A stretch of 58,733 nucleotides of DNA, the filler included, from Candidatus Zhuqueibacterota bacterium (lineage in GTDB: Bacteria; BS750m-G25), in the NCBI GenBank assembly GCA_016783505.1. It is 4 parts of 4 records of this genome, joined end to end, with 100 filler letters (N's around TTAATTAATTAA, not from the genome) between each part and the next. Parts side by side here need not be neighbours in the genome. Positions count along the whole stretch, not along the records: positions 15,187 to 29,684 come from JADHWK010000053.1; 3 more parts are not named here. One strand, 5' to 3'. Positions 343-29,684 of this stretch are shown here, one piece after another (position 1 is the first letter of the stretch; each line of letters opens with the position of its first letter). The notes beneath the pieces were generated by a model, which saw only the letters and a program-made list of their open reading frames with translations, had not been told where the DNA came from and searched no databases. The position numbers and the translations under genes were made by a program.

Positions 343-742
343 AAAAAAACAATAGTGTGGTGAGCTATTACTATTTCACTAACTCGACGTCTCGAAATTT
401 CTAAGATTTTTTGTTCAACTTTCCTCAATTGCCAAGATTGCCAAAAGTTTCCCGAAACTTCGGGACCAAAATTATCTAAGTTTAGGAACTTTTTGCCCCG
501 ACACTTCGGGGTGAAATTTAGGCAATCTTTCAATTTTTGTCCATTATTCCCTACGGGTTGTAGGCCATTATTCCAGTTGTCCCGAAGGGGCTAAGTTATA
601 TAAATAAGGGCTATCGTTCGATGACTATCGGGATGCGACTACAATTTTTGAAAGGGATGTTGACCGACGCCATTTCCCCGATGTCGTTGACAACCAATGG
701 GAAATCACCGGGGTAAGTATGGAGAAAAAATTGAATTTTTTT

Positions 743-853: not shown

Positions 854-964
854 GGTTGAAACCAACATCCATTAAAACAAGGATTGAAACACTGCTAATT
901 ATCGCTAATTGCTGATTGTTGACTGCTGTCTAATGCCAACATCCATTAAAACAAGGATTGTAAC
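854..964 (+). CRISPR. orphan mini CRISPR array: 2 repeats (~37 nt) and 1 spacer (37 nt)
   Basis: R1 GGTTGAAACCAACATCCATTAAAACAAGGATTGAAAC (854-890) and R2 GTCTAATGCCAACATCCATTAAAACAAGGATTGTAAC (928-964). The 3' 29 nt match at 28 positions; ATCC/GGAT stem; ATTGAAAC class 1 handle. No cas gene in the window. Confidence 0.75.
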
Positions 965-3177: not shown

Positions 3178-3882
3178 ATGTATAAGAAAATTGGCATACT
3201 TGGTGGATTGAGTCCGGAATCTACAATTGAATACTACCGATATATTACCAGAAAATATTACGAGCTTTTTGGAGATTACAACTATCCCGAAATCATCATT
3301 TACGGGGTCAATTTCCAACAGTTCATAAACTGGCAAAGAGAAGGAAATTGGAATAATATCGTGGAAAGGCTGGTACAAGCTACACAAGCCATCCATGCTG
3401 CCGGCGCTGACTTCGGATTAATTGCCACAAACACTATGCATATTATATTTGACAAGGTGCAAGAGAAATCACCAATACCCCTTATAAGTATTATCGAAGC
3501 CACCGCTACTGCAATTAATAAAGAGAAAATCGAAACCGTTGGACTTTTAGGAACCCTTCACACTATGAGAGAGCAATTCTATAAAGAAGGATTATTTAGA
3601 CACGGTATCAAAACGATAGTTCCAGAGCCACAAGAGCAAGAATTTATCAACAAAGTAATTTATGATGAATTGACAAGAGGACGAATAAATCAGAGGTCAA
3701 AGCAAGCCTACATAGAGATTATTAATAAACTCAAGGCTAAAGGAGCAGAAGGCATAGTTCTAGGTTGCACCGAAATACCCCTTTTAGTACAACAGATTGA
3801 CTGCAACATAAAACTATTTAATACAACACAGATACATGCACAAAATGCACTTAACCTTGCTACAAATACCGAGGTCAGATAA
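3178..3882 (+). CDS. aspartate/glutamate racemase family protein (YgeA-like)
   Basis: KKIGILGGLSPEST, IATNTMH and LGCTEIPLL motifs. Start moved to ATG 3178 because the longer ORF begins in repeat DNA. Confidence 0.9.
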   Translation: MYKKIGILGGLSPESTIEYYRYITRKYYELFGDYNYPEIIIYGVNFQQFINWQREGNWNNIVERLVQATQAIHAAGADFGLIATNTMHIIFDKVQEKSPIPLISIIEATATAINKEKIETVGLLGTLHTMREQFYKEGLFRHGIKTIVPEPQEQEFINKVIYDELTRGRINQRSKQAYIEIINKLKAKGAEGIVLGCTEIPLLVQQIDCNIKLFNTTQIHAQNALNLATNTEVR

Positions 3883-14063: not shown

Positions 14064-14578
14064 ATGGGACAGACCATCTTGATTCTAGGGGGTTACGGTA
14101 ACACGGGACGGCTCCTTGCCAGGCTTCTTCTACTGGAAACCGACGTTAATTTGTATATTGCCGGAAGGAATAGGGAGAAAGCTCTGACCACCGCAGAACA
14201 GTTAAACAAAGAGTATCACACCAACCGAGTTCGGGGGATCTACGCAGATGCATCCAAGGTGAATACTCTAAAGAAAGCTTTTGAAAAGGTGGATTTCGTT
14301 CTTATTACATAGTGATGAAACTGGAAGCTGATGGGAAAAAAGATGGTAAACAGAAAGAAATGACGGTTCAACTTTACCATGAAGATGGTTATTGGTTCAC
14401 GGCAATACCGGTAGTGGCATGTTTGCTGCAGTATCTGGACGGCTCCATCCGCAAGCCAGGGCTCTGGCGTATGGGACAAATATGCGATCCGCAGAGATTG
14501 TTCCGTGATATGGAAAGACTTGGAATCAGGATTAAGATAAAAATTGAAGGGACGACCAATCACACCTTTCTCCAGTAA
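14064..14578 (+). pseudogene. saccharopine dehydrogenase-like oxidoreductase remnant (internal deletion, two fragments)
   Basis: ILILGGYGNTG..AGRN Rossmann fragment stops at 14312; a C-terminal fragment (DGYWFTAIPV..PGL) follows in another frame. Confidence 0.7.
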
Positions 14579-15186: not shown

Positions 15187-16381
15187 TATCGGCATTAGGA
15201 GTAAATATAAGGTTGCGCCAATCCCCTTTTTGGGGATTTTCTTCAGCAGAGGTAAATCGGATGGGATTGGTTAGAGTACCGACCGCATTCAATTTACCGT
15301 TAATGAGAAGATAATAGGGTCCGGTAAAGCGAATCTCTACCCCAGGGTCAATATTAATGGTGATCTGCACATCAATAACGACGTTATTGGTCACCACATA
15401 GGGACTGAGGCCCAGGGTAAGATCTTGGGTAATAAATTTACGAAGCTCGTTAGGCTGTATCACATAATCAAAAGCCCCTATATCATCATGATAGACAATG
15501 TCGCCAGCACCGATGCAGGGGGAAATAGACTGCAAACTAAAATCCCCGGTTTCCTCGTCTTTAAATTTAGGATGCATGGCGATGTTATAATGAATATCAC
15601 ATGAGTCACCATTAGCATTGACTGAAGCCAGTTGCCGCCCGCCGTAGCCTACCGCCAGGGAATCCCCGTAATAATAATCACCGGATTGATTCACGTAGAC
15701 AGCATTGTATGATATGCCTGGATTGGAGTCAAAAGACCAATAAATCCCATAATCCCAATTGTAAAAGGCGATATTATTCTTTACGGTGGGGGATGAATTA
15801 TAGATGGAAATACCCGTCCAGGAATTATTGTAAATCGTATTATTTACAATTGTTGGCTCAGAATTGTCGAGACAATGAATGCCATCAAATTTCCCGTAGA
15901 CAATCAGATTGTGCTTCAAAACGGGGCTGGAATGATTACATGTTATTGCCCCGTGATAGACCTTCAAGGTATCCCACACATTCGCATATTCAACCTTACA
16001 GTACTCTAGATAACTGGTACTTTGAGAATTGTTAAACACGATCCCCCGCCACATTTGAGAAGATCCCTCTTTTGGCCGAAAGGCGGTGAAAACGATCATG
16101 TTCCCACCGGTTCCTGTAGCATCCAGGGTACCATTGATCTGGAAGGAATAATCCCCGTTGAAGGCGATTTCCACTCCCGGTTCAATGGTCAAACTGGCCC
16201 CCTCTTCCACCCGAATATCGCCCACCGCGGCAAAGGGGCTACCCGATGCGGACAGTCGTCCGGAGAGGGAACCGCTTATTTGAGTATAATTCTCCAGCGG
16301 ATCCTTTGGCTCCCATCCGAAATCGCATCCAACCAGCAAAAAAGGGATCAACAAGCTGATTAACTGGATCTTTTTCAACAA
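15187..16381 (-). CDS. lipoprotein with right-handed beta-helix (pectin lyase-like) repeats, truncated at gap
   Basis: LLVGC lipobox; repeated LTIEPGV..F, WRGI and NNTIYNN motifs. Confidence 0.8.
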
Positions 16382-16524
16382 AAGAGACCCCTCTTCCCAA
16401 TATGGTGTGCAACAACTGTGTTTTTACAAACAAAGTCGTAGACTTTGCACATTCCAATTCATTGGAATTAATACAGGAGAATTAGGATAGGAATTGATTC
16501 CTATCCTTCATAATGGTTTTGAAT

Positions 16525-19500
16525 TTAAAACGACCATTTTAACCGCACCAGAATCTGGCGGGGGGGTTCGAAATTGCGAGGATTATGGTCGTAGTCAGTT
16601 CTATCTGTATAGGCAGAATAATAGGTGTAATAGTCTGGATTATCCGGATGATACCTTTGGGTAGGACTCCCCGTCTCCCCAAATACCTGGGCGACGTTCT
16701 TTTTGTTAAAGAGATTATGAACTTCAAGACCCAGGGTTAGTTCGGTATTTCTTAACATAAAATATTTTTCTATCATTAAATCGGTGGTCTCTGTCCAAGG
16801 CTTTCGGGCCGAGTTCGGGGTGATCAGCTCTTGCCTGGCTACCTCTTCGGTATATTTGGATGGAGTATAAGGATATCCACTGCCAATGTGGGTTGACACA
16901 CTGAGCAGCCAATTGGATGGCATCCTGATCCCCATGATGCTGATCCTCTCTCCCTTTCCTACGATCAGGCTAGCATTGATGTCTAAGCCGTGTAGTTCAT
17001 CCCAATCTAAGGGATGTTCATCGGTGTTTTCCGGAACATTTGACAGGGGATTAACCAGCTCTTCCACCGCCTCCGACTCCTTCCCCTGGGCATACATAAA
17101 TGTATAGTTGACCTTGGCCCGCCAGAAATTAGAAAGCCTTTTCTCAGCGCTCAGCTCCACCCCCCTCCCACGACCGTACGATGAATTGTAATATCTCGGA
17201 ATAACGAAATTACCCACCCTCTCCTTGATGACACCCACCTCATTAAACTTGTCTTTGTAGAAACCGGAAATATCAAACACAAAATCGTCTCTTATCTGTG
17301 AACTTACCCCCAGCTCATACATAACGGTCTTGATATATTTCAAATTGGGATTCCCAACCGCGATGCCGCTGTTCAGCCCGGCGGTGTTGGATTTATAATA
17401 ATTACGGTAATCCGGGGGCTGGAAGAAATGACCGTAGTTGAAGTACAGTTTGCTCCGGGAGGTAATAGGATGGGAGATACCCAATCGGGGAGCCACCCTC
17501 CGAACACCGGACCTGGGCATCTCCCTTAAAGATCCGATCTCACCCTCATAATGCCTTTTTTTGTAATCTTTGATGAGATCTGGGTCATGGATAACAAAGT
17601 CAAACCGAAGACCTGCCCGCAGAATCATCCCCTGAAATTCCATCTTATCGGTAAAATAGACCGCCCCTTCCCAGGGTTTGGCCCGGTAAAAGTCCCTCAC
17701 CGCCCCCCGATCGGGCCAAGGACTGCCGGGCGGGAGAACCGCATCCCCGGTATAAGGATACCCCGGATAACTGATGTCCTGCATCTGCATATCCCGGTAA
17801 ATAAGCTCCGCCCCTGCTTTGATCTCATGATACTTGCTGGCCTGACTGGTGAGATCAAATTTCAAATTATATTCTGTTGTTTCCCGTTCATGCCAGAGGG
17901 CCACCGGATCATACACACCCGGGTTGAGAAACTGGTCGGACCCGTTCCATATTCCATTACGATTGTAATCCTCAAACCATTCCCCCTCATCCCAGCGATA
18001 GTTAGGGGAATTAAAGACCGGATCACCCTCGTCATTAGTGGTCCGGTTGTGCCAGGTGGAATGGAGGGGATCGTACCGGAGGTAATCCCCCCACATCCAT
18101 TCCTCCCCATAGAGGTTATTCTGAAGATAAGGATCCCACGAATAGTAAATCGGGAAGCGGGGGTCCATCACCTGGGATAGGCCGGCGGGGCGGGTGAACA
18201 GTTCGTATTCATCAAAAAAACCGTTGGGGCCGTCGTACTGGCCGTTCAGGGTAGGTATGCCCAGATTAAAACCGGGAGCCGTATAGGATGAAGGCAGATC
18301 CAGGTAAAACTCACCGGGGTCCCAAACCCCATTATATAATCCGGTTATGGGGTCGGGGCTGTCAATGAAAGGCTCCCCAGTATCATAGAACATGTCCCCA
18401 TCTAAATAGGGCTCACCTGGGTCATAGATCAAAGAACCCGTTGTCCGGTAAGCGAACTCTAATACGTTTAGGCTACCGTCGAAGTTCCGATCGTCGTAGC
18501 CCTCGCTGTAACCCACCGGTTCCCCCACATCCCAACGGCCATTGCCGTTCAAATCTTCGAAGGGGCCATCCCAATAGCCGTTGCCGTTGGCATCCTGGAA
18601 GCGTTCCCCATCCCAGCGGCCGTTATGGTTCCAGTCCTGCTCTGGCAATTGGGGTTCAGCCGGGTCCCAGATACCATTCCCGTTCAAATCGGTGAAGGGG
18701 TCCCACGGATCGTAGACCCCCAGATTGTTGCGACCGGTAGCGGGGTCGGGCACATCCACAAAGGGCTCGGCATAATCATAAACCCCGCTTCCGTTGACAT
18801 CTATCCAGTCCTCGCCCCGGTCCCAGCAGCCGTTGCCGTTGAGGTCCTCATACCCCTCCCCCCAGCCATCGTAGATCTCATTCCCATTGGCGTCCACGTA
18901 ACCGTCGTAAAACCCATTGGTGATCAGTTGGTCAATGTCGCCATCCCCGGCAAGAATGTCTTGATAATTCAAAACCCCATCGAAATTCCGGTCTATGATT
19001 TCGTTAACATAATCCTCCCGGTCCCGATACATGGTAAACTGGCCGGGGTCTTTACCCCTGGGTTTAATGCTGGTCTGGTTATTATAACGACGAAGAGTGA
19101 CTTCAAAGAAAGTTCTTGAGCTTAACTGATTGGTGTAGATCAACCCGATGTTCGTTACTTCGTTTTCGGTAAAGGGTCGGCTCTCAGGGTTATACTTATA
19201 CCGCCAAGCGTTGGCATCCCAGTCCCCGTATCTAGAATCATAAAAATTGTCCCATCTCCTTTGCTTTTTTGATAGCTTAAGGGTCAACTTCTGGGAGTCA
19301 GTTAACTTATAGGTTAATTTTATATTCCCTTTATAACTAGTAGATTGCCTCTGGGGAAGCTCAACCCCAATATCCATAAGATCACTATCAGGAACCCCAA
19401 CCGGTGCATGTCCATCTGCAGTAAAGGGTGTGTAAGTATTGGAAATGTATGCGGATCCACTAAAATAAAAGGTAAGCTTATTAGGGAGGATTTTATCCGA

Positions 19501-20313
19501 ATAGGGGATAAATCCCCCTAGGGAGAATTCAAGGCGGTCTGAATCGAACGAGTGTTTGTCAAACGGCATGTCAGTAGAATAGTCTATTCCGCCGAAGTAT
19601 CTCTTATCGCTACCTTCCGGTGTGGTGATGTTGATAATACCCGATTGGACCCTTCCGTACTCAGCGCTAAATCCCCCGGTTAGGATTTCGATTTCTTCAA
19701 TGTCCACGTTGGAAAAATCAAAAAGGGTTTGCCGGGAGTCTAAAGGGTCCCTCATGGCCATGCCATCCACTACAAAGAGGGTCTCGTCGGCCCTCCCCCC
19801 CCGAATGTGAATATTGCCCCGGCTATCAACTTTGAACCCTGTCTGGGTACGCAAAATTTCTTTAATATTGCTAACCGGCATTACATCTATATCCTCTTTC
19901 GAGATCCGGGCTGAATGAGAGGTCAAGTCCAACTGCACCAGGGGCTTCTCGGCCACAATGATGACCTCCTCACCCAAGTCTAACACGGTCTCTTTAAGCT
20001 TAAATTCCAGATTGGTGGTCAGGTCAATGTTCACCCTGGCTTCGGTAATGGTCATCGCCGAATAGCCCATCATGGTGGCCTTCACCGAATATTTCCCGGG
20101 CTTGACGTTGATGATGAAGAAGCTCCCTTCCAGATCGGACATCGCCCCCAGGGTGGTGCCCAGCACGATCACATTGGCCCCGGGCAACGGCAACCCGGTG
20201 GCCTCATCCACCACGCGACCGGCGATCTTCCCCGTGGTTCCAGCCATCAGGCTGGACGACCCCAAAAAATAGGCAACCACCGATCCCCAAAAGACAGCCT
20301 TTACCCATTGCAT
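16525..20313 (-). CDS. TonB-dependent receptor with a large DxNxNG-repeat insertion
   Basis: GTTGKIAGRVVD..PLPGANV N-domain; IRGGRADE and GGFSAEYG plug; PRLGIS and GNPNL; terminal F. Confidence 0.92.
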   Translation of the reverse strand: MQWVKAVFWGSVVAYFLGSSSLMAGTTGKIAGRVVDEATGLPLPGANVIVLGTTLGAMSDLEGSFFIINVKPGKYSVKATMMGYSAMTITEARVNIDLTTNLEFKLKETVLDLGEEVIIVAEKPLVQLDLTSHSARISKEDIDVMPVSNIKEILRTQTGFKVDSRGNIHIRGGRADETLFVVDGMAMRDPLDSRQTLFDFSNVDIEEIEILTGGFSAEYGRVQSGIINITTPEGSDKRYFGGIDYSTDMPFDKHSFDSDRLEFSLGGFIPYSDKILPNKLTFYFSGSAYISNTYTPFTADGHAPVGVPDSDLMDIGVELPQRQSTSYKGNIKLTYKLTDSQKLTLKLSKKQRRWDNFYDSRYGDWDANAWRYKYNPESRPFTENEVTNIGLIYTNQLSSRTFFEVTLRRYNNQTSIKPRGKDPGQFTMYRDREDYVNEIIDRNFDGVLNYQDILAGDGDIDQLITNGFYDGYVDANGNEIYDGWGEGYEDLNGNGCWDRGEDWIDVNGSGVYDYAEPFVDVPDPATGRNNLGVYDPWDPFTDLNGNGIWDPAEPQLPEQDWNHNGRWDGERFQDANGNGYWDGPFEDLNGNGRWDVGEPVGYSEGYDDRNFDGSLNVLEFAYRTTGSLIYDPGEPYLDGDMFYDTGEPFIDSPDPITGLYNGVWDPGEFYLDLPSSYTAPGFNLGIPTLNGQYDGPNGFFDEYELFTRPAGLSQVMDPRFPIYYSWDPYLQNNLYGEEWMWGDYLRYDPLHSTWHNRTTNDEGDPVFNSPNYRWDEGEWFEDYNRNGIWNGSDQFLNPGVYDPVALWHERETTEYNLKFDLTSQASKYHEIKAGAELIYRDMQMQDISYPGYPYTGDAVLPPGSPWPDRGAVRDFYRAKPWEGAVYFTDKMEFQGMILRAGLRFDFVIHDPDLIKDYKKRHYEGEIGSLREMPRSGVRRVAPRLGISHPITSRSKLYFNYGHFFQPPDYRNYYKSNTAGLNSGIAVGNPNLKYIKTVMYELGVSSQIRDDFVFDISGFYKDKFNEVGVIKERVGNFVIPRYYNSSYGRGRGVELSAEKRLSNFWRAKVNYTFMYAQGKESEAVEELVNPLSNVPENTDEHPLDWDELHGLDINASLIVGKGERISIMGIRMPSNWLLSVSTHIGSGYPYTPSKYTEEVARQELITPNSARKPWTETTDLMIEKYFMLRNTELTLGLEVHNLFNKKNVAQVFGETGSPTQRYHPDNPDYYTYYSAYTDRTDYDHNPRNFEPPRQILVRLKWSF

Positions 20314-20664
20314 TTTGCAAAACCTATTTTTAATTATAAAATAATAATTCTAAATGTCAAAATCAAGTGTTTTTTGAAACCAACCCCAAAAAAAACACAG
20401 GTTAATTCCATTTAATAGAATTGATTTGCCTAATTGAGCTATGGATGCAAGGCTAAAATAGGCTTGAAAACTGTCTAATCTGTGGAAATTTGTCTATCTG
20501 GGTTACCAAAAAACGGACAATTTTTGGACAATTATTTTGCAAAAAGTCAAGTCCCTATTTTCTCAAAATAATTTAAGTCTTTTATTGGGAAAAGTCAAGG
20601 GTTTAATAATGTACTTTCTGAATTTATCTAATCAGGATTTTTGGGAACAGCCAGATGTTTAAAG

Positions 20665-20702
20665 AAAAACAAAAGGCCTACTCAAGATGAATGAATAGGC
20701 CT
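20665..20702 (-). terminator. repeated terminator-like hairpin
   Basis: AAAAACAAAAGGCCTACTCAAGATGAATGAATAGGCC, near-identical at ~22510-22546 and ~29415-29451. The first two copies follow CTD-ending genes or remnants. Confidence 0.65.
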
Positions 20703-20729
20703 GATTAACAATAACGCAGAATTGAGGTC

Positions 20730-21170
20730 TCACTTCAACAAAACCATCTTCCTCACCTTCTGAAACTCACCCGCTTGAATTTGATAAAAATAGATCCCAG
20801 AGGAATAACCGGATGCATCCCAGCTTATCTGGTGGTAACCGGCAGGTTGATGCTCATTAACTAATGTGGCTACTTCTCCTCCGAGGATGTTAAATATCTT
20901 CAAGGTTACCTTAGATTCCTTGGGAAGACTGTATTTGATGGTGGTTGTGGGATTGAAGGGATTGGGGTAGTTTTGCAGTAAACTATAGGCTTTTGGTTGG
21001 TCTTTTTCTACCATTACTCCATTTCCTTTTAACTTTATAAGCCAGAAATCCCTATCGCCTGTTCCAAATGATGCTGTTATCCCAGCTAAAATATAACCTC
21101 CATCAGATGTCTTCCGGACTGAAAAAGCCGCATCATGCTCAGAGCCTGCAGAGGTTTTATCCCACTCCTT
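20730..21170 (-). pseudogene. remnant of a secreted beta-propeller protein with a Por/T9SS-type CTD
   Basis: TSDGGYILAG repeat plus QNYPNPFNP..KMVLLK; no signal peptide; the ORF 5' part is unrelated read-through. Confidence 0.7.
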
Positions 21171-21237
21171 ATGTTCGGGGTCTTTTGCAGCAAAATATGT
21201 GATGTTAAAGAGTTTCTTGTTTGCTTTCTTGAAAAGT

Positions 21238-22071
21238 TTATTTTGGAGTAAAACGATAGATATAACCAAATGTACCGCAAGGAACAAAAGGGTCATTTTT
21301 TAAATTGCCTAGATTATCATGTAATACTTTTGCCATGCCCATTTCTATAAAAAATCCTCTATATCCTTTAATAGAAAAATTCAGACCATACGCAACTCCA
21401 AGACAAGTATAATGATAATCAGCGCCCGGATCACTTCCGACAATTCTCTCGGACAAAAGATTTATACTTTGTTGGGTATTTTCATTATCTGAAAACTTAT
21501 ATCCAAGATTAAGATGAAACTCATTATGATCATCACCCAGATACATTCCTGCAACTCTAACACCAACTGGTCCAAACCAATACCCAAGAGCAGGATTCAT
21601 TATCATTGAGCATACCACCCCAAGCTCAGGATATGACGCATGTTTTAGATCTCTTGGTTTTTCTTCAACCATAACTGGCTCATCATAAACATCTTTTTTT
21701 AAATCTTGAGGTTTTCCTGCTTCGATTTTTTTAAAGATTTCCCGGGGCTTTATATCGATTTGATATCTAATATTATTGATTGATTCCTGAGACACTTGTT
21801 TAAGCTCTATTTTCAACTCACCAGTTTGCTCATCAAGATAAGTTATTCTAAAAACATATCTATTATCGGGTAACTTGAGTAAAACTGCTGATTGAAATCC
21901 TTTGATATTCGGAAATAATTCATATTCCTCTCTTTCTTCCTTATCAATTTCTTTACCTACATGTTCACTGATAATAATAATTTCCCCTTCTTCCTGAGCG
22001 TAAAGTTGATTAGGTGAGAAAAATAAAATACCGATGAACAACGATAATGAGAGAAGATATTTCCCAAACAT
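21238..22071 (-). CDS. secreted or outer-membrane hypothetical protein (cassette-like)
   Basis: RBS AGGAAGG before MFGKYLL; signal peptide; beta-strand-rich C-terminal half. Confidence 0.75.
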   Translation of the reverse strand: MFGKYLLSLSLFIGILFFSPNQLYAQEEGEIIIISEHVGKEIDKEEREEYELFPNIKGFQSAVLLKLPDNRYVFRITYLDEQTGELKIELKQVSQESINNIRYQIDIKPREIFKKIEAGKPQDLKKDVYDEPVMVEEKPRDLKHASYPELGVVCSMIMNPALGYWFGPVGVRVAGMYLGDDHNEFHLNLGYKFSDNENTQQSINLLSERIVGSDPGADYHYTCLGVAYGLNFSIKGYRGFFIEMGMAKVLHDNLGNLKNDPFVPCGTFGYIYRFTPK

Positions 22072-22122
22072 GGCTTCCTTCCTTTTTTTATGGTCATTTA
22101 AGGTCAATATATCAGAAATAGT

Positions 22123-22502
22123 GCCTAACCTAGGTTTATACGACCTAAAATAAATTGCAAACATGGCAAATTTGGCCGTATAAACTCAGATAAGAATTAC
22201 CAGAAATAAGCAATTAATTAACTGCAAAACAAACGGTTAAACTATGGTGGTTCTCTATACCTCTTCAGGTTTATACGGCTTAAAATGGCGTATAATATCA
22301 TCTTTCACAATCCATTTATTCATAAAGTTGAGCGTCCTATACGTCAAGTAAATAAGCATAACCCATTATTGGGTGGATTCAATCCGTCTAATATTGATTG
22401 ATTTTTATCGTTAATAATATAAATATTTCATCGAAAAAAGTCAAGCCTATAATGGGATAATTACTGAACTTATCTAATCCCGGTTTTGGTGAACAATCAG
22501 AT
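22123..22502 (-). repeat. platform copy 1: promoter, attI-like site, ~230-bp spacer, attC-like junction
   Basis: Closely similar to 24415-24793. Minus strand reads TTGACT..TATATT, ACCCAAT-AATGG-GTTATGC, then GTTTATACGGCC..GGTCGTATAAAC-CTAG-GTTAGGC. Confidence 0.75.
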
Positions 22503-22624
22503 ACTCAAAAAAAACAAAAGGCCTACTCAAGATGAATGAATAGGCCCTACCAGCAAAATCAAATTGTAAATGAAAAACTGAAATTAAATTTTTCTTTTCG
22601 GATAGCGTAACCCTGACTACCCTT

Positions 22625-22806
22625 CTACTTCAACAAAACCATTTTCCTCACCTCCTGAAACTTCCCCGCCTGAATTTGATAAAAATAAATTCCAGAGGAA
22701 TAACCGGATGCATCCCAGCTTATCTGGTGGTAACCGGCAGGTTGATGCTAGGCCACCAATGTGAACACTTCCTGACCCAAGATGTCAAATACCCTAAGGG
22801 TTACCT
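22625..22806 (-). pseudogene. isolated CTD fragment with an internal stop
   Basis: KVTLRVFDILGQEVFTLVA*HQPAGYHQISWDASGYSSGIYFYQIQAGKFQEVRKMVLLK*. Confidence 0.85.
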
Positions 22807-22829
22807 TATATCACCACAACACGTGGCAA

Positions 22830-22903
22830 GTTCAACCCCACGTTGCACACCGACCTTCACTAATCCATATGTTCCAGTCGGGTGCAACGCTTATTCGTTA
22901 GGC
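22830..22903 (-). mobile_element. attC-like integron recombination site
   Basis: Minus strand GCCTAAC-GAATAAGC-GTTGCACCCGAC...GTCGGTGTGCAAC-GTGGG-GTTGAAC: RYYYAAC and GTTRRRY ends, inner inverted repeat with one extra base. Confidence 0.65.
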
Positions 22904-23053
22904 GCGTAAGTAGTTGATATTTACTCGCTTAATATCAATTTTCTAATTAGACAAATTATCATTAGCTTCTATTTTATTATAAGTATTAAAGTTCAATTTT
23001 TTAAATAACTTATTACGAAGCACTGAATTTGAAATTTACGCTTGCGCCCTTCA

Positions 23054-23080
23054 GTCAGCTTGATTTTTATTGTTAGATGC
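23054..23080 (-). mobile_element. left half of an attC-like site
   Basis: Minus strand GCATCTAACAATAAAAATCAAGCTGAC resembles the aadA-type attC start GTCTAACAATTCGTTCAAGCCGAC; no right half is visible. Confidence 0.55.
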
Positions 23081-23344
23081 TATTTGCCTTACTCGCTAAA
23101 AATGACATCGGAAACAATTTCCTGAATAGTCTCATTGTAGGACTTGTTCTCCTGATGCACACAAGAACAAGCACCAAAGCCTTACCCGGCCAGATCAACG
23201 AGCATTCCAACGACCACCGGAACCTTATCCGGCCCAACCGATGAGCACGGAAATGATGCGAGCAGGACGTGGACTGTGCAAATGCTGGTTTATATTGTAT
23301 CTGATAAAATATGGCCAGTTATTGGAGGATTCCTTTGAACCGGA

Positions 23345-24355
23345 TTAGTCCACAAATAAATTAAAATTGAAATTGGCACCAATGGAGATAACAAATGGAT
23401 TTGAATCACTATCTAGATTGGCATAGCTCATCAGTGTGAAAAGCCGGGCATTTTCGACAATAGTATAGAAAACGCCTGCTGTGATGCCAAAACCCTCAAT
23501 AGCTTCCGCGTCTACAACTCCTGCGGAGACGGAAAAGTCGGTGTTGATGTCCTCAATTATCACGGTGGAAGTCGCATAGATGAAGTTTGCATTACCATCA
23601 CCAGTATCAACATTTTCATAGGAAATCCCAATCTTAAGGTTTTTCCGGTTGTACGTAGCATAACTGCGTATTGCATTGCCATCGGGGTCTACGCCTGGAA
23701 TTGTGGCCACAGCCTTATCATTCATAGCAGAAATACCACCGATTGTGAACCCTCCGGTGTTGTAAGAGCCACCGGCAATGTAGCCATGATCATTTTCATT
23801 AGAATCGTCTATGTATAAACCACCAACCAGTTTGAATCCACCAATATTCATTGATTCATACTGAAGAGCATTATCAGTGAAACCGTTGGTGGCACTAGAC
23901 AATCCATATGTAGCGCCACCAGCAGCATAAGCACCTCCTGCACTGATATGTGACAGGTTGTAGAAGGGGTCCATGACAAAGCCGGGGAATTTATACGCGT
24001 TGGTCATACGACCGAAGGAGACCTTGCCGAAATTGCCTTTCAAGCCGCCATAATAAAAACGCTGTTTGAAGGCGCGACCAGCTGCGTCTCCATCAGCGAA
24101 GGCTTGAGTCTGCAGATGGAAGAATGCTATGATACCATCATTGCCATACTCACCTTTTACACCGAACAGGGAGATGTTGTCCTGACCCTGGATGCCATCG
24201 ATATTAGTCCCAACACCATCCTCGTTGATGGAGTTTAGTGAATAGCGGAAATTACCGTAAATAGTTACTGCATTTGGCGGGTTACCTGCCATTGCCACAC
24301 CAGAAAGGGCAAAGAAAACCACAGTCAGAATCGGAAGAATAAGACTTTTCTTCAT
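23345..24355 (-). CDS. Gram-negative porin family protein
   Basis: Signal peptide; VTIYG; FGVKG; YGGLKGNFGKVSFGR; RBS AGGAG. Confidence 0.85.
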   Translation of the reverse strand: MKKSLILPILTVVFFALSGVAMAGNPPNAVTIYGNFRYSLNSINEDGVGTNIDGIQGQDNISLFGVKGEYGNDGIIAFFHLQTQAFADGDAAGRAFKQRFYYGGLKGNFGKVSFGRMTNAYKFPGFVMDPFYNLSHISAGGAYAAGGATYGLSSATNGFTDNALQYESMNIGGFKLVGGLYIDDSNENDHGYIAGGSYNTGGFTIGGISAMNDKAVATIPGVDPDGNAIRSYATYNRKNLKIGISYENVDTGDGNANFIYATSTVIIEDINTDFSVSAGVVDAEAIEGFGITAGVFYTIVENARLFTLMSYANLDSDSNPFVISIGANFNFNLFVD

Positions 24356-24414
24356 TTGACTAATCTCCTATGTTAAATTATTTCAATAATACCTTGATTT
24401 GATTATACTTACTG

Positions 24415-24793
24415 GCATTCTAACCTGGGTTTCGGTGTACTAATACAAAACGCAAACACGGCCAATTAGGCCGTATAAACCCATATAGAAATTCCCAGAA
24501 ACAAGCAATTAATTAACTGCAAAACAAACTGTTAACCTATAATGGTTTTCAATACCTCTTCAGGTTTACACGGCTTAAAATGGCGTATAATATCTTCTTT
24601 CACAATCCATTTATTCATAAGGCTGAGCGTCCTATACTCAAGTAAATATGCCTAACCCATTATTAGGTGGATTCAATCCGTTTAATTTTGATTAATTTTT
24701 AGCATTAATAATATAAGTTTTACATTGGAAAAAGTCAAGGTTTTAATACCATAATTTTGAACTTATCTAAATCCAGTTTTTGGGGACATTCAG
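24415..24793 (-). repeat. platform copy 2: promoter, attI-like site, ~230-bp spacer, attC-like junction
   Basis: Minus strand ACCTAAT-AATGG-GTTAGGC (24668-24650). Similarity to copy 1 ends at AAACCCAG-GTTAGAA (24424). Confidence 0.75.
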
Positions 24794-24797
24794 AAAT

Positions 24798-24830
24798 AAA
24801 AAGCCCCATCATTTGATGAGGCTTTCTTTT
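24798..24830 (-). terminator. intrinsic terminator
   Basis: AAAGCCCCATCATTTGATGAGGCTTT hairpin flanked by A/T runs, after the 24857 stop. Confidence 0.7.
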
Positions 24831-24856
24831 CTCAGAATTTATGGGAGGTCTTCTTA

Positions 24857-26602
24857 TCACTTCAACAAAACCATCTTCCTCACCTTCTGAAACTCCCCCG
24901 CTTGAATTTGATAAAAATAGATACCAGACGAATGATCCGCAGCATTCCAGTTTATCTGATGGTAACCGGCAGATTGATGCTCATCAACTAAAGTGGCTAC
25001 TTCTTGACTGAGGATGTCAAATACCTTCAAGGTTACCTTTGACTCTTTGGGAAGCCCGTATTTGATGGTGGTTATTGGATTGAAGGGATTGGGGTAGTTT
25101 TGGGAAAGTTGGTAACTTTTGGGAAAGCTTACTTCATTCACATCTGATACAATTGGTTTACCAGAGTGCCTTCTATTAATAATAATTACACAATCATAGC
25201 CCTCTATTGGGGTGCCATCATTCAAGTTGGCTGTAAGGGTCAAGACTACTTCATCACCATCTTCAACATCTCCTAGCGCTTCTACAATCTCTCTGGTTTT
25301 GAACTCTAATTTGAGGTCATTAAACCCATCCCGACCATCTGATGTACAATCACATACATCTTCAGGATCAGCGACTGGTGTGCTAACGTCTCTAATTCTC
25401 CAACGTTTGGGAGCTACACCTTGAAGTTCAATGGTTGTTACATCAATATCGTTTACATCAAAATCTTGAGTCCCAAGTATAGCTACTTTAAGCCTCTTTT
25501 CTCTTCTAACATTAAGTCGGTTAGGGCAGCGCTGAGGCTTGATGTCAATATCTACCTCTACAATAGTTACCGTAACTGTAGCATAGCCAATGGAATAGTA
25601 GTTTCCAGTAATATCCTTGCCAGTAAACCACATCTTATAGGAGAACCCATCTTTGATTACAAAAGGGGTATAAGTGCGAGTATTTCTCCAGTCAATACCA
25701 TCGTTCACGTTGAAAATCGGATTGTCGGCATCTCTGGTCCAGTCTATGCCATCCGACGAAGTGGCATAGCCGATCCCTTCGTGGCTTGCACTACCACCGC
25801 CACTATACCACATGTGATATCCATCATCGTCATTAAGTATAGTCCAAGCATAGACATATAAAGAATCCCATGCACCATCAGGACCGCTTAGCATTACTGG
25901 TTGATCCTCGTATCTCTTCCAATAGATTCCATCCAAAGAATATGCTAATGCAGTTGACTCAATCTCCCCTGGGATACAATTCATAGTTGCAACATCATAG
26001 TACATAACATATTTGTGACCCATTGGATCTTCATCGTTCCAGGTATCATATCCACCTGGGTTGTATAGCACGGTGCCCGGCCCATACGTCCCATACCACC
26101 AGCCGCAGTAACCTGTTACGAGGGGATATAAGGGGTCCTGGGAAATCGGCTGGATATTCACCCAGTTTATCCCATCAGTGGACTCAGCATATTTTATAGT
26201 CTCGGTATTGTAAGGCCAGATGCTTGGGTCAGCAAACCACATTTTATAAAAACAGGCGTCTCCCCCAAAACCCTCATGGTCATAGAGAACTTTGCAGTGG
26301 TAGCGCACGTTTCCTGTAACCGACCCCAAGTCTGCCCAAGCAATACCATCTTCTGAATAGGCGAATCCAACCATGCCAGAGCTTGTTCCATACCACATCT
26401 TGTATTTGACAGCGAGACCATGTCCGGAAAACTCGGTGGCATCGTAGAGTACGCTGGGATAATAAGCCTTTGGGTCTCCAATTAATTGACCAAATACAGG
26501 GTTGCCACTGTATTCTATCCATTCAAGCGGCCCTTGTGCGCTAGCCAGTAGTGCCAAAGCTAACACCAGAGCCATCACCTGCAATAACATTTGCTTTTTC
26601 AT
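24857..26602 (-). CDS. secreted five-bladed beta-propeller glycoside hydrolase-like protein with DIDIKP domain and CTD
   Basis: Signal peptide; repeated YKMWY..IGYAxSxDGIxW blades; QNYPNPFNP CTD. Confidence 0.8.
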   Translation of the reverse strand: MKKQMLLQVMALVLALALLASAQGPLEWIEYSGNPVFGQLIGDPKAYYPSVLYDATEFSGHGLAVKYKMWYGTSSGMVGFAYSEDGIAWADLGSVTGNVRYHCKVLYDHEGFGGDACFYKMWFADPSIWPYNTETIKYAESTDGINWVNIQPISQDPLYPLVTGYCGWWYGTYGPGTVLYNPGGYDTWNDEDPMGHKYVMYYDVATMNCIPGEIESTALAYSLDGIYWKRYEDQPVMLSGPDGAWDSLYVYAWTILNDDDGYHMWYSGGGSASHEGIGYATSSDGIDWTRDADNPIFNVNDGIDWRNTRTYTPFVIKDGFSYKMWFTGKDITGNYYSIGYATVTVTIVEVDIDIKPQRCPNRLNVRREKRLKVAILGTQDFDVNDIDVTTIELQGVAPKRWRIRDVSTPVADPEDVCDCTSDGRDGFNDLKLEFKTREIVEALGDVEDGDEVVLTLTANLNDGTPIEGYDCVIIINRRHSGKPIVSDVNEVSFPKSYQLSQNYPNPFNPITTIKYGLPKESKVTLKVFDILSQEVATLVDEHQSAGYHQINWNAADHSSGIYFYQIQAGEFQKVRKMVLLK

Positions 26603-26917
26603 TGAGTTTTCCTCCTTATTTGATTGTTGAGCGTTTTATCTCACTGATATTAGACCGCCTAAAAGCCGTGTTATTTTACATCATTTCGGCAGTCTGATCC
26701 CAATTTAATTAATTATGAAATGGTATTATTCGGTATTTTTTAAAACAACTAAAAACCCCTCCAGCCCCCCAATCTTTCTGGGTTTTTGCTGCCGTTTTCA
26801 CCGCATTCCATCAGGGGAATTCCCCTATAATCTTTTTAAAAATAAACATTATTTGGCAAATTGTCAAGGGAAAAATCATTATACTCAACGCCACCCTAAA
26901 TTAAGGTGTTTATTATT

Positions 26918-29017
26918 CTATTTCAACAAAATCAACTTCCGGGTCTGTGAAAAATCACCCGCTTGAATCTGATAAAAATAGATTCCTGATGAGTGACCAG
27001 ATGCATCCCAGCTTATCAGGTGGTAACCTGCAGGCTGATGTTCATTAACTAATGTGGTTACTTCCCGCCCCAGGATGTTGAATATTTTCAGGGTTACTTC
27101 AGATTTCTTGGGAAGGCCATATTTGATGGTGGTGATGGGGTTGAAGGGGTTGGGGTAGTTATGATGAAGAACGTAAACATCAGGCAGGATAAATCCTTCA
27201 TCTGCAATCCCAAGCTCATATACGTGAACGGTAAAACTATCACTCCAGAAAAAATAACCTTCACTGGCGATGGATATATGTATAGGAATATCCCTGCCAA
27301 CTGGGCAGTTCTCACTGATGGTCATGGTGTAGAAACCGGTATTAGTGGCAACTTCACCAGGGGGGATGTCACCGAAATAATTCCAATTGGGTAGACCAGA
27401 TACGCAGGTGTCATTAGTGCTTTGTTCTGCAGTGATGAACAAAGCCTCCGTCGTGGATCCATCATTCCTTAGTGTTATCTTGTACAACATATAATCACCC
27501 GGATTGGGAATTGTGTCAGAAGAATAAAACGTCATCCCATCATAAACAACTGGACCGATGGTGGTGAAATGTTCTTCACTAGAATAAGTTGTAATCGATT
27601 CATCTGAATCAGTCGTTCGAAGTTTAATATCAAAATAGTCTTCATCGAGTTCATCTAACCATTTTATTCCACCAAAGATGTTATCAGAAGCAAGACTATC
27701 ATTATGTAAACCGTCGTCGAACAACTGCAATGAATCTTGAAAAGTAGAATTTTCACCTTGGATTAATGCGTGGACTGTTACCTGATGATTCTCCGGATTG
27801 CTAATTTGAGCGATGAGTTTAAGTGTGTCGCCCTGCTGCGGTCGTATATATTTTGGATAAACTTCCATTAATTGTCCAAAAGCGACTGTAGTATAAGGAT
27901 TCTTATACCACACAACACTGCCTATAGCTGGCACTATTACATCGTTAATTTCGTCTCCATCTACGTCTACAACAGCGAATACTCGGGGTCCGTCCAAGTT
28001 TGCATCTATGGTATGTTTAGTCCAAGTGGGGTGATTATTTTCATACCATACAACACTAGCCCCAGAAAATCCACCTACTATTACATCCATTGTATCATCG
28101 CCATCGACATCTGTAACATATGGCCAAGTGGCTCCATCCAAGGTTGTGTCAATTATATGTTTTGTCCAATTAGGGTGATTATTCTCATACCATACAACAT
28201 CACTTCCGCTAAAATATGGTCCACCAGTCGTTGCCACTATGTCCATTGTACCATCCCCATCAATGTCACCACTATTTAGACCAAAAGCATTATTAAGACT
28301 ATTATCAATCGTGTAATTGGTCCACGATAGTCCATTGTCTTCAGTTTTATACCAAACAACTTTATTTGCATTAACCATAGTTACTACTAAATCAAGGAGT
28401 CCATCGCCGTCAATATCGGTAACGTTTAGAGATGGAGCTCCAGTTGCACCTGATTCGATGATATGTTCAGTCCAATTAGGGTGATTGTTCTCATACCAAA
28501 CAATATCACCGCCAGAATCTCCACCAGGTGTTACTACATCAAGTGTATCATCGTTGTCTAAATCGGCAACCTGCATAAAATCAGCATTATACGTGTTTTC
28601 ATCTATGATATGTCTAGTCCAGGTTGGGTGATTATTTTCATACCAAACCATTTTTCTCGCAGTGTATAATGATGCTACGACATCCAGGGTATTGTTGCCA
28701 TCCATATCGCCACTAAACGCAAAAGTCACTCCCCATGCATTTGAATCTATGGTATGTTTAATCCATTGAGGGAAATTATTCTGATACCAAATTAGTTTGC
28801 TGTTAACCCAATCTGTTACTATCAAATCCAGTTTGGTGTCACCATCCAGATCAGCAACATCTACCGATACAGCTACATTAATGTTATCATCAATAATGTA
28901 CTTTTGCCACTGCCCATAAGCTGGTTTAAAAACACCTAGTAGTGTTCCTAATATGAGGGCTACAAAGAAGTATACAGTAATGCGGTTAACTTTTTTAGTT
29001 GCTATAACACTTTTCAT
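26918..29017 (-). CDS. secreted FG-GAP/VCBS-repeat protein with CTD
   Basis: About seven DxDGDxxxD..VWYENNHPxWTKH repeats; LFDDGLHND motif; NYPNPFNP CTD. Confidence 0.88.
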   Translation of the reverse strand: MKSVIATKKVNRITVYFFVALILGTLLGVFKPAYGQWQKYIIDDNINVAVSVDVADLDGDTKLDLIVTDWVNSKLIWYQNNFPQWIKHTIDSNAWGVTFAFSGDMDGNNTLDVVASLYTARKMVWYENNHPTWTRHIIDENTYNADFMQVADLDNDDTLDVVTPGGDSGGDIVWYENNHPNWTEHIIESGATGAPSLNVTDIDGDGLLDLVVTMVNANKVVWYKTEDNGLSWTNYTIDNSLNNAFGLNSGDIDGDGTMDIVATTGGPYFSGSDVVWYENNHPNWTKHIIDTTLDGATWPYVTDVDGDDTMDVIVGGFSGASVVWYENNHPTWTKHTIDANLDGPRVFAVVDVDGDEINDVIVPAIGSVVWYKNPYTTVAFGQLMEVYPKYIRPQQGDTLKLIAQISNPENHQVTVHALIQGENSTFQDSLQLFDDGLHNDSLASDNIFGGIKWLDELDEDYFDIKLRTTDSDESITTYSSEEHFTTIGPVVYDGMTFYSSDTIPNPGDYMLYKITLRNDGSTTEALFITAEQSTNDTCVSGLPNWNYFGDIPPGEVATNTGFYTMTISENCPVGRDIPIHISIASEGYFFWSDSFTVHVYELGIADEGFILPDVYVLHHNYPNPFNPITTIKYGLPKKSEVTLKIFNILGREVTTLVNEHQPAGYHLISWDASGHSSGIYFYQIQAGDFSQTRKLILLK

Positions 29018-29103
29018 CTTTTCATCCTCCTATAAAAAAATGCCAAATTAGCAACACAAACGAGGGACGCTCCCTTTTTTTATTAATATTATTAATTTAG
29101 GGG

Positions 29104-29405
29104 AAAGATGCAAGAGTTTTTCTCACTTTTTTTACCCCGGAATGAAACGGATTAGGCACAAAATCTTTTAAAATCGAGGGGGGGTAAAAATTATAAAAAT
29201 TTTTCCGGGGATTATTATTTAACAAAAAATCCCTGAAAGCATTTACTGGGTATATTATTCCGGTCGATAAACCAATAATAGCCCTACCACATTCTATTGG
29301 CGAACAGGGGTCGTTTTATGAGGAAAACCAGTTCCGAATCAGATCTATTTGGAATTAGTTTGTCTTATCTTTATATTACAAAATTAACGGAAAAGAATCA
29401 AGGAA
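29104..29405 (-). repeat. conserved long leader A, copy 1
   Basis: Similar to 39927-40295; both lie between a TTGAyT promoter-like site and a minus-strand gene. Confidence 0.7.
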
Positions 29406-29684
29406 AATATTTCAAAAAACAAAAAGCCTACTCAAGATGAATGAATAGGCCTTGTTTCATAAAAATAGTAGAATTTTGGTAGAATTGACCCTTGTTTTAT
29501 AGCTAAAACCATCTATATTTAATAGAATTGACCTGGATACAACCCGGTTAGGGTTCTGGAACCGATTCCTTCCTGCTCCCGGCGGATGTTGTCATCCGCT
29601 CAGTCGGGCGCCTGACCGATCTTAGCAGGCGGGTCTTTGGCGGGCAGGCAACATCCTCGACGAGCACGGGTCCAGATTTTAATC

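Follow-up and report, generated by a model that had tools for sequence, protein, structure and literature searches.

A textbook integron has one integrase, one attI site and one promoter for each row of gene cassettes. The DNA studied here raises the question of whether a capture site and its promoter can also be multiplied and stand apart from any integrase gene. This stretch (the window, 58,733 nucleotides including filler) consists of four contigs of one metagenome-assembled genome of Candidatus Zhuqueibacterota bacterium, with runs of N between them. On one contig (C69, window 15187-29684; window coordinate = contig coordinate + 15186) a block of about 380 bp occurs twice, each time in front of a different gene, and an initial inspection of the letters (the sequence-only reading) had taken both copies for stand-alone platforms on which cassettes are captured and expressed. 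The genome comprises 2.5 Mb in 89 contigs and is 60% complete; the genome collection used for comparison contained no relative from its phylum or any nearer one. Many of its genes carry type IX secretion sorting domains (Pfam), a feature that points to the FCB group as the probable placement of the host.

Our best reading of the block is a promoter module, P1, followed by a leader, L, of about 230-300 bases, whose last bases form a putative docking point for cassettes. Across the genome, L would be an attI-like docking site that is joined to a re-used promoter, has been multiplied and detached from the integrase, and heads short cassette rows. We give this reading a probability of roughly 0.6. 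It is carried by the common end of six L copies, by canonical attC cassettes lying in the correct orientation behind four of them, and by the complementarity between cassette starts and their own inverse cores.

A leader family with a common end point

When searching the genome with nhmmer, we found five full copies of L (two on C69, one each on C77 and C37, and one on C11 that runs across the contig ends) and a 46-nucleotide (nt) 3′ fragment on C73. A search for the end motif returned seven matches, which are the six L ends and one unrelated coding site. All six L ends lie at the same nucleotide; five read ..CC(T/C)AG|GTTAG and the sixth reads ..CCTAT|GTTAT. The prediction that further copies would break at this G|TT therefore holds for six ends on five contigs. 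Each of the six ends is separated by 40-65 unique bases from a ribosome-binding site and the start of a gene; these genes are unrelated and share the strand of L. The copies are 71-87% identical over about 300 nt and show mosaic exchange between each other. The exact 11-mer GTTTATACGGC is found in the genome nine times, always inside an L copy, and each L holds several motifs of this type in alternating orientation.

In portions of PMC3146285, attI is described as a simple site in which two integrase-binding domains face in inverse orientation and the crossover lies in the core; core-like direct repeats upstream may be present or absent. The end of L reads ..CGTATAAAC-CTAG-GTTAGGC or, in three copies, ..CCGAAAC-C(T/C)AG-GTTAG. 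By sequence and position, all six ends thus have the simple-site layout ..(T/G)AAAC-C(T/C)AG-GTTAG, and in four to five of them a cassette starts after the G. None of L beyond its terminal 19 nt was scored by our two attC models (R1 and R2, see below). No integrase gene was found beside any L copy or on the window's contig, in keeping with the sequence-only reading of platforms that lack one.

The left border of L has a similar character. Both L bodies on C69 begin at the G|TT of an upstream site, box1. On C37, the 70 nt before the L body are homologous to the heads of rows on C53 (z=21) and C30 (z=15), and in these heads true cassettes begin at the same G|TT where the 70 nt of C37 end. L therefore occupies the position of a cassette, with three different kinds of context upstream, but its end is a simple site and not an attC. 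Since G|TT bounds L on the left too and the upstream contexts differ, L has probably been moved by the same kind of recombination. Its upstream neighbours are housekeeping genes, a terminator and P1; cassettes were not among them.

The first and last 111 bases of contig C11 (9341 nt) are identical and both lie inside L, so that this contig is either circular or flanked by two identical L copies. By open reading frame (ORF) reading, its 9.2 kb include a porin-like gene as well as a cluster for metal ABC uptake.

P1 looks like an ordinary sigma-70 promoter module that is re-used before many genes, and L appears to be built from the core-site-like 11-mers. At the end of L, the inverse-core-like ..(T/G)AAAC, the C(T/C)AG and the core GTTAGGC would form an attI-type simple site, which we infer to be recognised by an integron integrase supplied from elsewhere in the genome. 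The enzyme would cut between G and TT of the core and join a circular cassette via its attC site, which would place the captured gene downstream of P1 and L in the sense orientation, where P1 may drive it.

Cassette rows and the integrase relic

An attC site consists of an inverse core, an imperfect palindrome and a core, as laid out in portions of PMC5027507. Scans by pattern and duplex energy were unspecific (103 against 97 in reversed sequence; 38 against 19 and 11 in controls) and were therefore replaced by covariance models. To that end, 29 candidate sites from the genome were collected and aligned, and a structure comprising 5 pairs in the R box and 17 in the L box was written by hand, because RNAalifold gave none on this alignment. 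The consensus has the inverse core GcCTAAC, then the imperfect palindrome and then ...CGTTAGGC. AAC and GTT are found in 29 of 29 sites, with the TAAC/GTTA columns partly selected because TAAC and GTTA belonged to the search pattern. Pairing was observed in 84.5% of the cells, compared to 26-40% when the partners were slid. In addition, 107 cells had changed on both sides, a number reached in none of 500 shuffles, and 14 of the 17 L-box pairs have compensatory changes. The unpaired columns 17, 20 and 25 are present on the 5′ arm only, which makes the two strands asymmetric.

Model R1, built from all 29 sites, gave 33 genome matches at E<=0.01, eight of them outside the training set. The matches fall on one strand only and are co-oriented within rows (four on C77, four on C72 and three on C17, minus; two on C44, plus). 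This search of the whole assembly, which the sequence-only reading had proposed, thus puts the attC sites of the genome at 33 or more, arranged in co-oriented rows. For model R2 we used 21 sites and left out the four adjacent to L. The model nevertheless scored these four at 49.7 bits (C37, filters off) and, in the whole-genome search, at 48.0 (C73), 45.9 (C11) and 45.4 bits (C77). Positive controls were also recognised by R2: on an E. coli plasmid the site that immediately follows aadA1 (41.2 bits, E=2.2e-7), and on a cyanobacterial plasmid five sites that lie upstream of a gene annotated as integron integrase. The earlier expectation of attC at the platforms held in part: a canonical site follows the gene behind four of the six L ends, but the inverted repeat at the end of L is not scored.

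We also compared the first 10 nt of each unit behind L with the inverse core (R″) of the site after its first ORF. On C37 they are complementary at 10/10 positions (0/300 shuffles) and on C77 at 9/10 (20/300). The copy at the higher window coordinates (copy B) matches only with one deletion and the other (copy A) not at all. Cassettes inside rows match their own R″ at 8-9 of 10 positions (for example three on C77, C44:10249, C39:535 and C72:35868). From the pairing, the leave-out model, the control sites and this complementarity we conclude that the genome carries ordinary integron cassettes, in rows on at least C77, C72, C39, C17, C44 and C73. The rows headed by L contain four attC sites on C77, two on C73, one on C37 before the contig ends and one on C11. 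Clusters of attC sites (CALIN) and single attC sites (SALIN) without an integron integrase are a described category (Cury et al. 2016, PMC4889954 / bioRxiv 10.1101/030866; Loot et al., bioRxiv 10.1101/2022.09.11.507474; portions of both), and having two attC sites or more, with no integrase nearby, the L-headed rows on C77 and C73 are CALIN. The window's contig, with its single decayed attC site, is not. An intI gene beside attI and a row, as in a complete integron, was present neither on the window's contig nor at any L copy.

Rows that are not headed by L have shorter heads of like construction, namely an inverse-core-like box, 3-6 bases and a core where the cassette begins; examples are C17, C53, C30, the C44 platform, and P1 with a box1-like site on C35 and C84. 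The head on C81 is a plain promoter region, with a TTGATT-17-TATTAT promoter ending at the junction. In the four-cassette row at C77:4844-9895, the first gene encodes a 333-aa protein of no known family and the second a 377-aa protein with, by eye, an ATPase and a restriction-endonuclease-like domain; the row may hold defence genes.

The only clear intI in the genome is an integron integrase gene with its middle deleted (C44:2866-3190). Its N-terminal 81 aa are matched only by integron-integrase models (TIGR02249, 62.5 bits, positions 1-55; NF011946, 58.4 bits) and match more than 5000 plasmid records, while the C-terminal 43 aa cover positions 263-304 (79.8 bits). The sequence-only reading had an integrase acting in trans from another place in the genome; a deleted relic is indeed present on another contig, but no intact gene was found in the 60%-complete assembly, so that loading in trans is something we infer. 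The relic is followed by a platform of 128 nt (3181-3309) that ends ..ATATACTTAG|GTT; a further copy of this platform, accompanied by another integrase fragment, lies 2.2 kb downstream. By direct reading, the cassette behind each platform copy starts with a match to its own inverse core, 9/9 and 8/8. A platform thus stands on both sides of a gene beside the relic, which is the same pattern as in the window.

The relic has the same orientation as its cassettes. The second fragment, from the 5′ region of the integrase (locus at 5309-5546), runs straight into an inverse core, ..CCGCCCAAC|CAGGCATTAC, which gives the impression that recombination once targeted the integrase gene.

The two copies in the window

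The existence of the repeat was borne out: the blocks at 22125-22501 (copy A) and 24420-24794 (copy B) are 84.35% identical over 377 nt (blastn, E=3e-114), and both end at G|TTAG. Within the direct repeat, the segments 22125-22342 / 24420-24637, 22344-22462 / 24638-24756 and 22465-22501 / 24758-24794 are 86%, 84% and 81% identical, respectively. Its extent had been underestimated. On the minus strand the duplication continues in the 5′ direction, first across a terminator hairpin and then over the final 60 codons of a type IX secretion sorting domain, so that a terminator and, beside copy A, a dead sorting-domain tail belong to it. On this strand both copies have the promoter, box1 and about 230 conserved bases, and their similarity ends at G22129|TT and G24424|TT. 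The promoter noted earlier is found in both copies by consensus match (Table 1), and direct reading of box1 gave, in both, GGATTGAATCC followed by the simple site ACC(C/T)AATAATGGGTTA(T/G)GC, as described before. As also described before, unrelated genes follow the break at GTTAG; they encode a 277-aa and a 336-aa protein, neither with a Pfam match. The terminal inverted repeat ending in GTTAG is real in copy A (arms 22125-22148 / 22171-22194, 75% complementary), but in copy B its distal arm has been replaced. Its designation as an attC-like junction has to be withdrawn, since the attC models give no score there; by its appearance the end is a simple site of attI type.

Table 1. Positions of features in and around the two block copies (window coordinates)
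Feature	Position	Strand	Basis
Copy B, conserved upstream part of P1 (..TTTAGATAAGTTCAAAATTATGGTATTAAAAC)	24739..24794	-	direct repeat; member of P1 family
Copy B, predicted sigma-70-like promoter TTGACT-17-TATATT	24710..24738	-	consensus scan, 10/12 matches
Copy B, box1: GGATTGAATCC + ACCTAAT-AATGG-GTTAGGC, inverse-core-like + core, read directly; possible junction G24656|TT	24650..24679	-	
Copy B, leader body L, ends ..CCGAAACCCAG|GTTAG; junction G24424|T24423	24424..24655	-	nhmmer E=1.8e-84; end motif
Candidate porin gene, 336 aa, first behind copy B	23345..24355	-	ORF; no Pfam match
Decayed attC of porin unit, R″ ATCTAAC 23078-23072, R′ GTTATTT 23009-23003	23003..23078	-	model R1
Weak attC-like palindrome, orientation ambiguous	22830..22903	.	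duplex scan + R1
Dead type IX secretion C-terminal sorting-domain remnant, last 60 codons, in-frame stop	22628..22807	-	tblastn, 85% identity to tail of 188-aa protein, E=3e-33
Intrinsic-terminator hairpin (core GGCCTATTCATTCATCTTGAGTAGGCC + T run)	22518..22548	-	terminator scan
Copy A, predicted promoter TTGACT-17-TATATT	22416..22444	-	consensus scan
Copy A, box1 (..ACCCAATAATGGGTTATGC); G22362|TT	22356..22385	-	read directly
Copy A, leader body L, ends ..GGTCGTATAAACCTAG|GTTAGGC; junction G22129|T22128	22129..22361	-	nhmmer E=1.9e-87
Copy A, half-sites of L, GTTTATACGGC-type 11-mers in alternating orientation	H1 22296-22268; H2 arms 22194-22171, 22148-22125	-	
Gene of 277-aa secreted protein behind copy A	21238..22071	-	ORF; no Pfam match
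188-aa protein with type IX secretion sorting domain	20730..21296	-	Pfam PF18962, 4.2e-13
Terminator behind 188-aa gene	20702-20674	-	scan
Third P1-like promoter	20598-20570	-	scan

For copy B we see one probable old cassette, made up of the porin-like gene and an attC site in decay; by itself this evidence is weak, and its interpretation leans on the other loci. The first bases of this unit and its R″ (GTTAGAATGC and GCAT-CTAAC) are complementary with one deletion. The motif GCATCTAAC is located at 23080-23072 as reported earlier, but instead of closing the porin unit it opens, as inverse core, the decayed site at 23078-23003. In terms of language-model (protein-atlas) features the 336-aa protein scored 0.98 to Porin_4 clusters, which is a lead only. 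The palindrome at 22830-22903 has -17.8 kcal/mol on the minus strand and 8.5 bits with R1 on the plus strand (E=2.3), which is not significant. Copy A looks unoccupied, or the gene behind it domesticated; its junction GTTAGGC is the consensus core, as expected of an unoccupied site. The description of both platforms as loaded may hold for copy B, with its decayed unit, and falls for copy A, which has no cassette signature.

At the copy-B junction the same bridging sequence was seen in contigs from two origins, the likely source run and an independent study; the copy-A junction is bridged in the likely source run. The contigs of sequencing runs break at repeats, and the only other joints were those attributable to other copies of the repeat modules. 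Scans with the exact pattern of L detected it on one metagenomic contig, from a sister strain, which has the same L and the same 277-aa gene; no L was found on viral contigs. On the sister-strain contig, the 188-aa gene (L029:266-832 versus window 20730-21296) is the same up to ..NYPNPFN and then has another sorting-domain tail and other downstream DNA, which suggests recombination within the conserved sorting-domain sequence.

The modules of the block are re-used across the genome. The 27-nt terminator core occurs 28 times in 2.5 Mb with at most four substitutions, with stem and loop conserved, and is followed by one of three stereotyped promoter classes. The repetition of the terminator and of three promoter modules indicates that the intergenic regions of this organism are built from few re-used parts. 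In the window, besides the two terminators in Table 1 (22518-22548 and 20674-20702), a third copy lies at about 29425-29451. For P1, a pattern search gave 16 matches, 12 of which were accepted by eye; with copy B, which the pattern missed, P1 has 13 copies. At C89:23153, C35:40526 and C84:73270, P1 and box1 occur without L, and the similarity ends at the GTTAG of box1. At C84:73177, P1 and box1 precede a unit of about 140 nt in which no ORF is present; this unit starts GTTAGAAAGC, contains GCTTTCTAAT (9/10 complementary) and has an attC-like palindrome ending in GTTAGCA, and it looks like an ORF-less cassette remnant behind a promoter. The third promoter class has a conserved stretch of about 45-60 nt behind it (..ctgattctgaactggttagcc..aaagat.acc.ctgtt) at six places (window about 29300-29350, minus strand, C69 about 14120-14160; C5:59365; C26:25849; C60:11485; C87:36856; C89:18502), for which no Rfam match at gathering score was found.

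Competing readings and known systems

The claim of stand-alone platforms for capture and expression gains from the shared G|TT end and the attC sites after four of six copies, and loses from the missing intact integrase and the weakness of the window's own copies. Several results weigh against it. The exact pattern of L had no match in 185,579 species genomes, and with six copies in a single lineage the power of comparison is low. No intact integron integrase was found in the 60%-complete assembly; 11 tyrosine-recombinase matches were obtained, none at the cut-off, and the best TIGR02249 match had 86.7 bits against a cut-off of 265. A MAFFT alignment of L and the C44 platform was suggestive, but in local alignment against shuffles the two are not significantly alike (z<2), so that L has no direct link to a known attI. 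The promoter is a consensus match only. In the window, the attC of the porin unit has 9.6 bits (R1, filters off; E=1.4), which is not significant alone, and the 277-aa unit has no attC-model match within 20300-22100 at E up to 10; its best R″ complement (7/10) was equalled by 300 of 300 shuffles. Also on C73 and C11 the start and R″ agree at 8/10 positions, reached in 114/300 and 231/300 shuffles, respectively, and these two cases count only because they coincide with a model-detected attC site. Finally, a look for alternative genes behind the GTT junction had been proposed; wherever other samples covered it the arrangement was the same, without any cassette turnover.

L could be an incidental hot spot, that is, a re-used promoter or 5′ leader behind which chance insertions were retained. 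Insertion outside att sites needs only 5′-GWT-3′, and cassettes near host promoters are expressed (bioRxiv 10.1101/2022.09.11.507474); these attG sites resemble L in that insertion lies outside a classical integron, with expression when it falls behind a host promoter, but they are genome-wide, whereas here one defined position of a repeated element was used repeatedly. P1 also stands before genes without cassette signature, plain promoter regions such as that on C81 head other cassettes, and copies A and B satisfy the published definition of putative mobile promoters, in which highly similar regions (>=80% identity over >=50 nt) stand upstream of unrelated genes in one genome (Nijveen, Matus-Garcia & van Passel 2012, PMC3575422). 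No mechanism is offered in that survey, in contrast to the boundary found here, which coincides with an integron crossover point. From a 3-nt target, five independent insertions at the same nucleotide and in the same orientation within a 300-nt element would be unexpected; the junction has the inverse-core/core pair of attI simple sites, and the core-site-like 11-mers are confined to L (9/9 exact copies). We therefore regard this reading as unlikely. We consider it quite unlikely that L is the relic of an array, in which old non-coding cassettes lost their attC sites through collapse by slippage, the end at G|TT is a mere cassette boundary and the rows are frozen. Such a relic would account for G|TT on both sides of L and for its standing where cassettes stand behind other heads; the arms of the L hairpin resemble core and inverse core (GTTTATAC compared with GTTATAC, an R′ variant of several attC sites), the only intI is dead, and turnover was not seen. 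On the other hand, the attC models score nothing in L beyond the last 19 nt, the neighbours upstream are not cassettes, and the identity of the copies together with the mosaic exchange suggests that L is maintained rather than decaying.

A cis-acting 5′ RNA leader shared by a regulon, for example an attenuator with alternative hairpins, could coexist with the docking site, but as the explanation of L it seems very improbable. A 12-bp long-range stem between two half-sites is kept in 7/7 aligned rows, the hairpin 24476-24456 with its T-rich tail scores as terminator-like, and the few changes in arms are G-U compatible on the sense strand (read from the alignment). By reading, however, the terminator-like hairpin is good in only three of the five full copies, and the folds of the whole leader are not unusual (z=-1.5 and -1.6) and differ between copies. 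The block has no Rfam 15 match, the best sub-threshold matches being unrelated and on the other strand; a small leader ORF is not conserved, the downstream genes share no common function, and the attC sites would be left unexplained. A leader peptide was rejected as well, because the short ORFs seen on either strand of L are interrupted elsewhere in the family. That the block is a plain segmental duplication or a miniature transposon is hardly credible. The repeat does take in flanking coding sequence and the terminator, and the genome has three Y1 transposase genes, yet a duplication leaves six copies on five contigs ending at one nucleotide unexplained, L has neither terminal inverted repeats nor target duplications, and the hairpins flanking the Y1 genes are unrelated to L. 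With no TnpB and no reverse transcriptase found in the genome, and with differing Y1 hairpins, IS200/IS605, REP/RAYT, Helitron-like elements and group II introns were rejected.

The three Y1 (IS200/RAYT-type) genes lie at C89:1233-1676, C32:19878-20357 and C80:2162-2617, with their own short GC-rich hairpins on both flanks, and hairpins like these (..cccgaaacttcggg..) are also found at window 400-560. A CRISPR mini-array at window 854-963 contains one full and one partial repeat (Rfam CRISPR-DR7, 46.2 bits); a relation to L was rejected, since this repeat is unrelated.

The nearest published relatives of the docking-site reading are CALIN and SALIN, attG sites and the duplicated or truncated attI pieces of clinical integrons, and the scattered promoter-linked sites would be an unusual layout for a well-known gene-capture system. 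The comparisons in this paragraph rest on portions of the cited sources. As in CALIN and SALIN, canonical attC rows occur here without an integrase nearby; these categories are defined by attC alone, with no conserved head in the definition as given in those portions, whereas here one repeated element of 300 nt supplies a common starting point for at least five rows, and two copies of this element are linked to a promoter. Like attI1 with its promoter Pc (PMC3146285; besides the simple site, attI1 has the direct repeats DR1 and DR2), L stands at the head of a row, with a predicted G|TT crossover in a GTTAGGC core; 4 nt upstream lies an inverse-core-like box, and other core-like motifs and a promoter come before that. 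Unlike attI1, L does not adjoin intI, is about 300 nt long instead of about 65 nt, and has at least six copies instead of one per integron. The arrangements copy B - porin-like gene - copy A and that on C44 recall the 'delta-attI-type' cassettes and attI1-aadB-attI1 (PMC12901181), where a gene lies between two attI-type sites; those are short and lie inside class 1 or class 2 integrons with an integrase, in contrast to the long, promoter-linked and chromosome-dispersed sites here. In a narrow full-text search of the literature no paper contained the phrases 'multiple attI' or 'orphan attI', which does not imply their absence from print.

Tentatively, the sites may together form a distributed integron, in which one integrase in the unassembled part of the genome serves many scattered, promoter-equipped platforms of attI type, and the platform itself would be moved by the same recombination. 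Such a system could plant new sites for capture and expression before or behind host genes. Workers in the field still ask how integrase-less rows such as CALIN and SALIN arise and whether cassettes continue to be added to them. If L is indeed a docking site, capture sites could multiply independently of the integrase. L would then also provide a concrete sequence for recombination assays, and a marker for such rows in metagenomes, where attI sites are otherwise unrecognisable.

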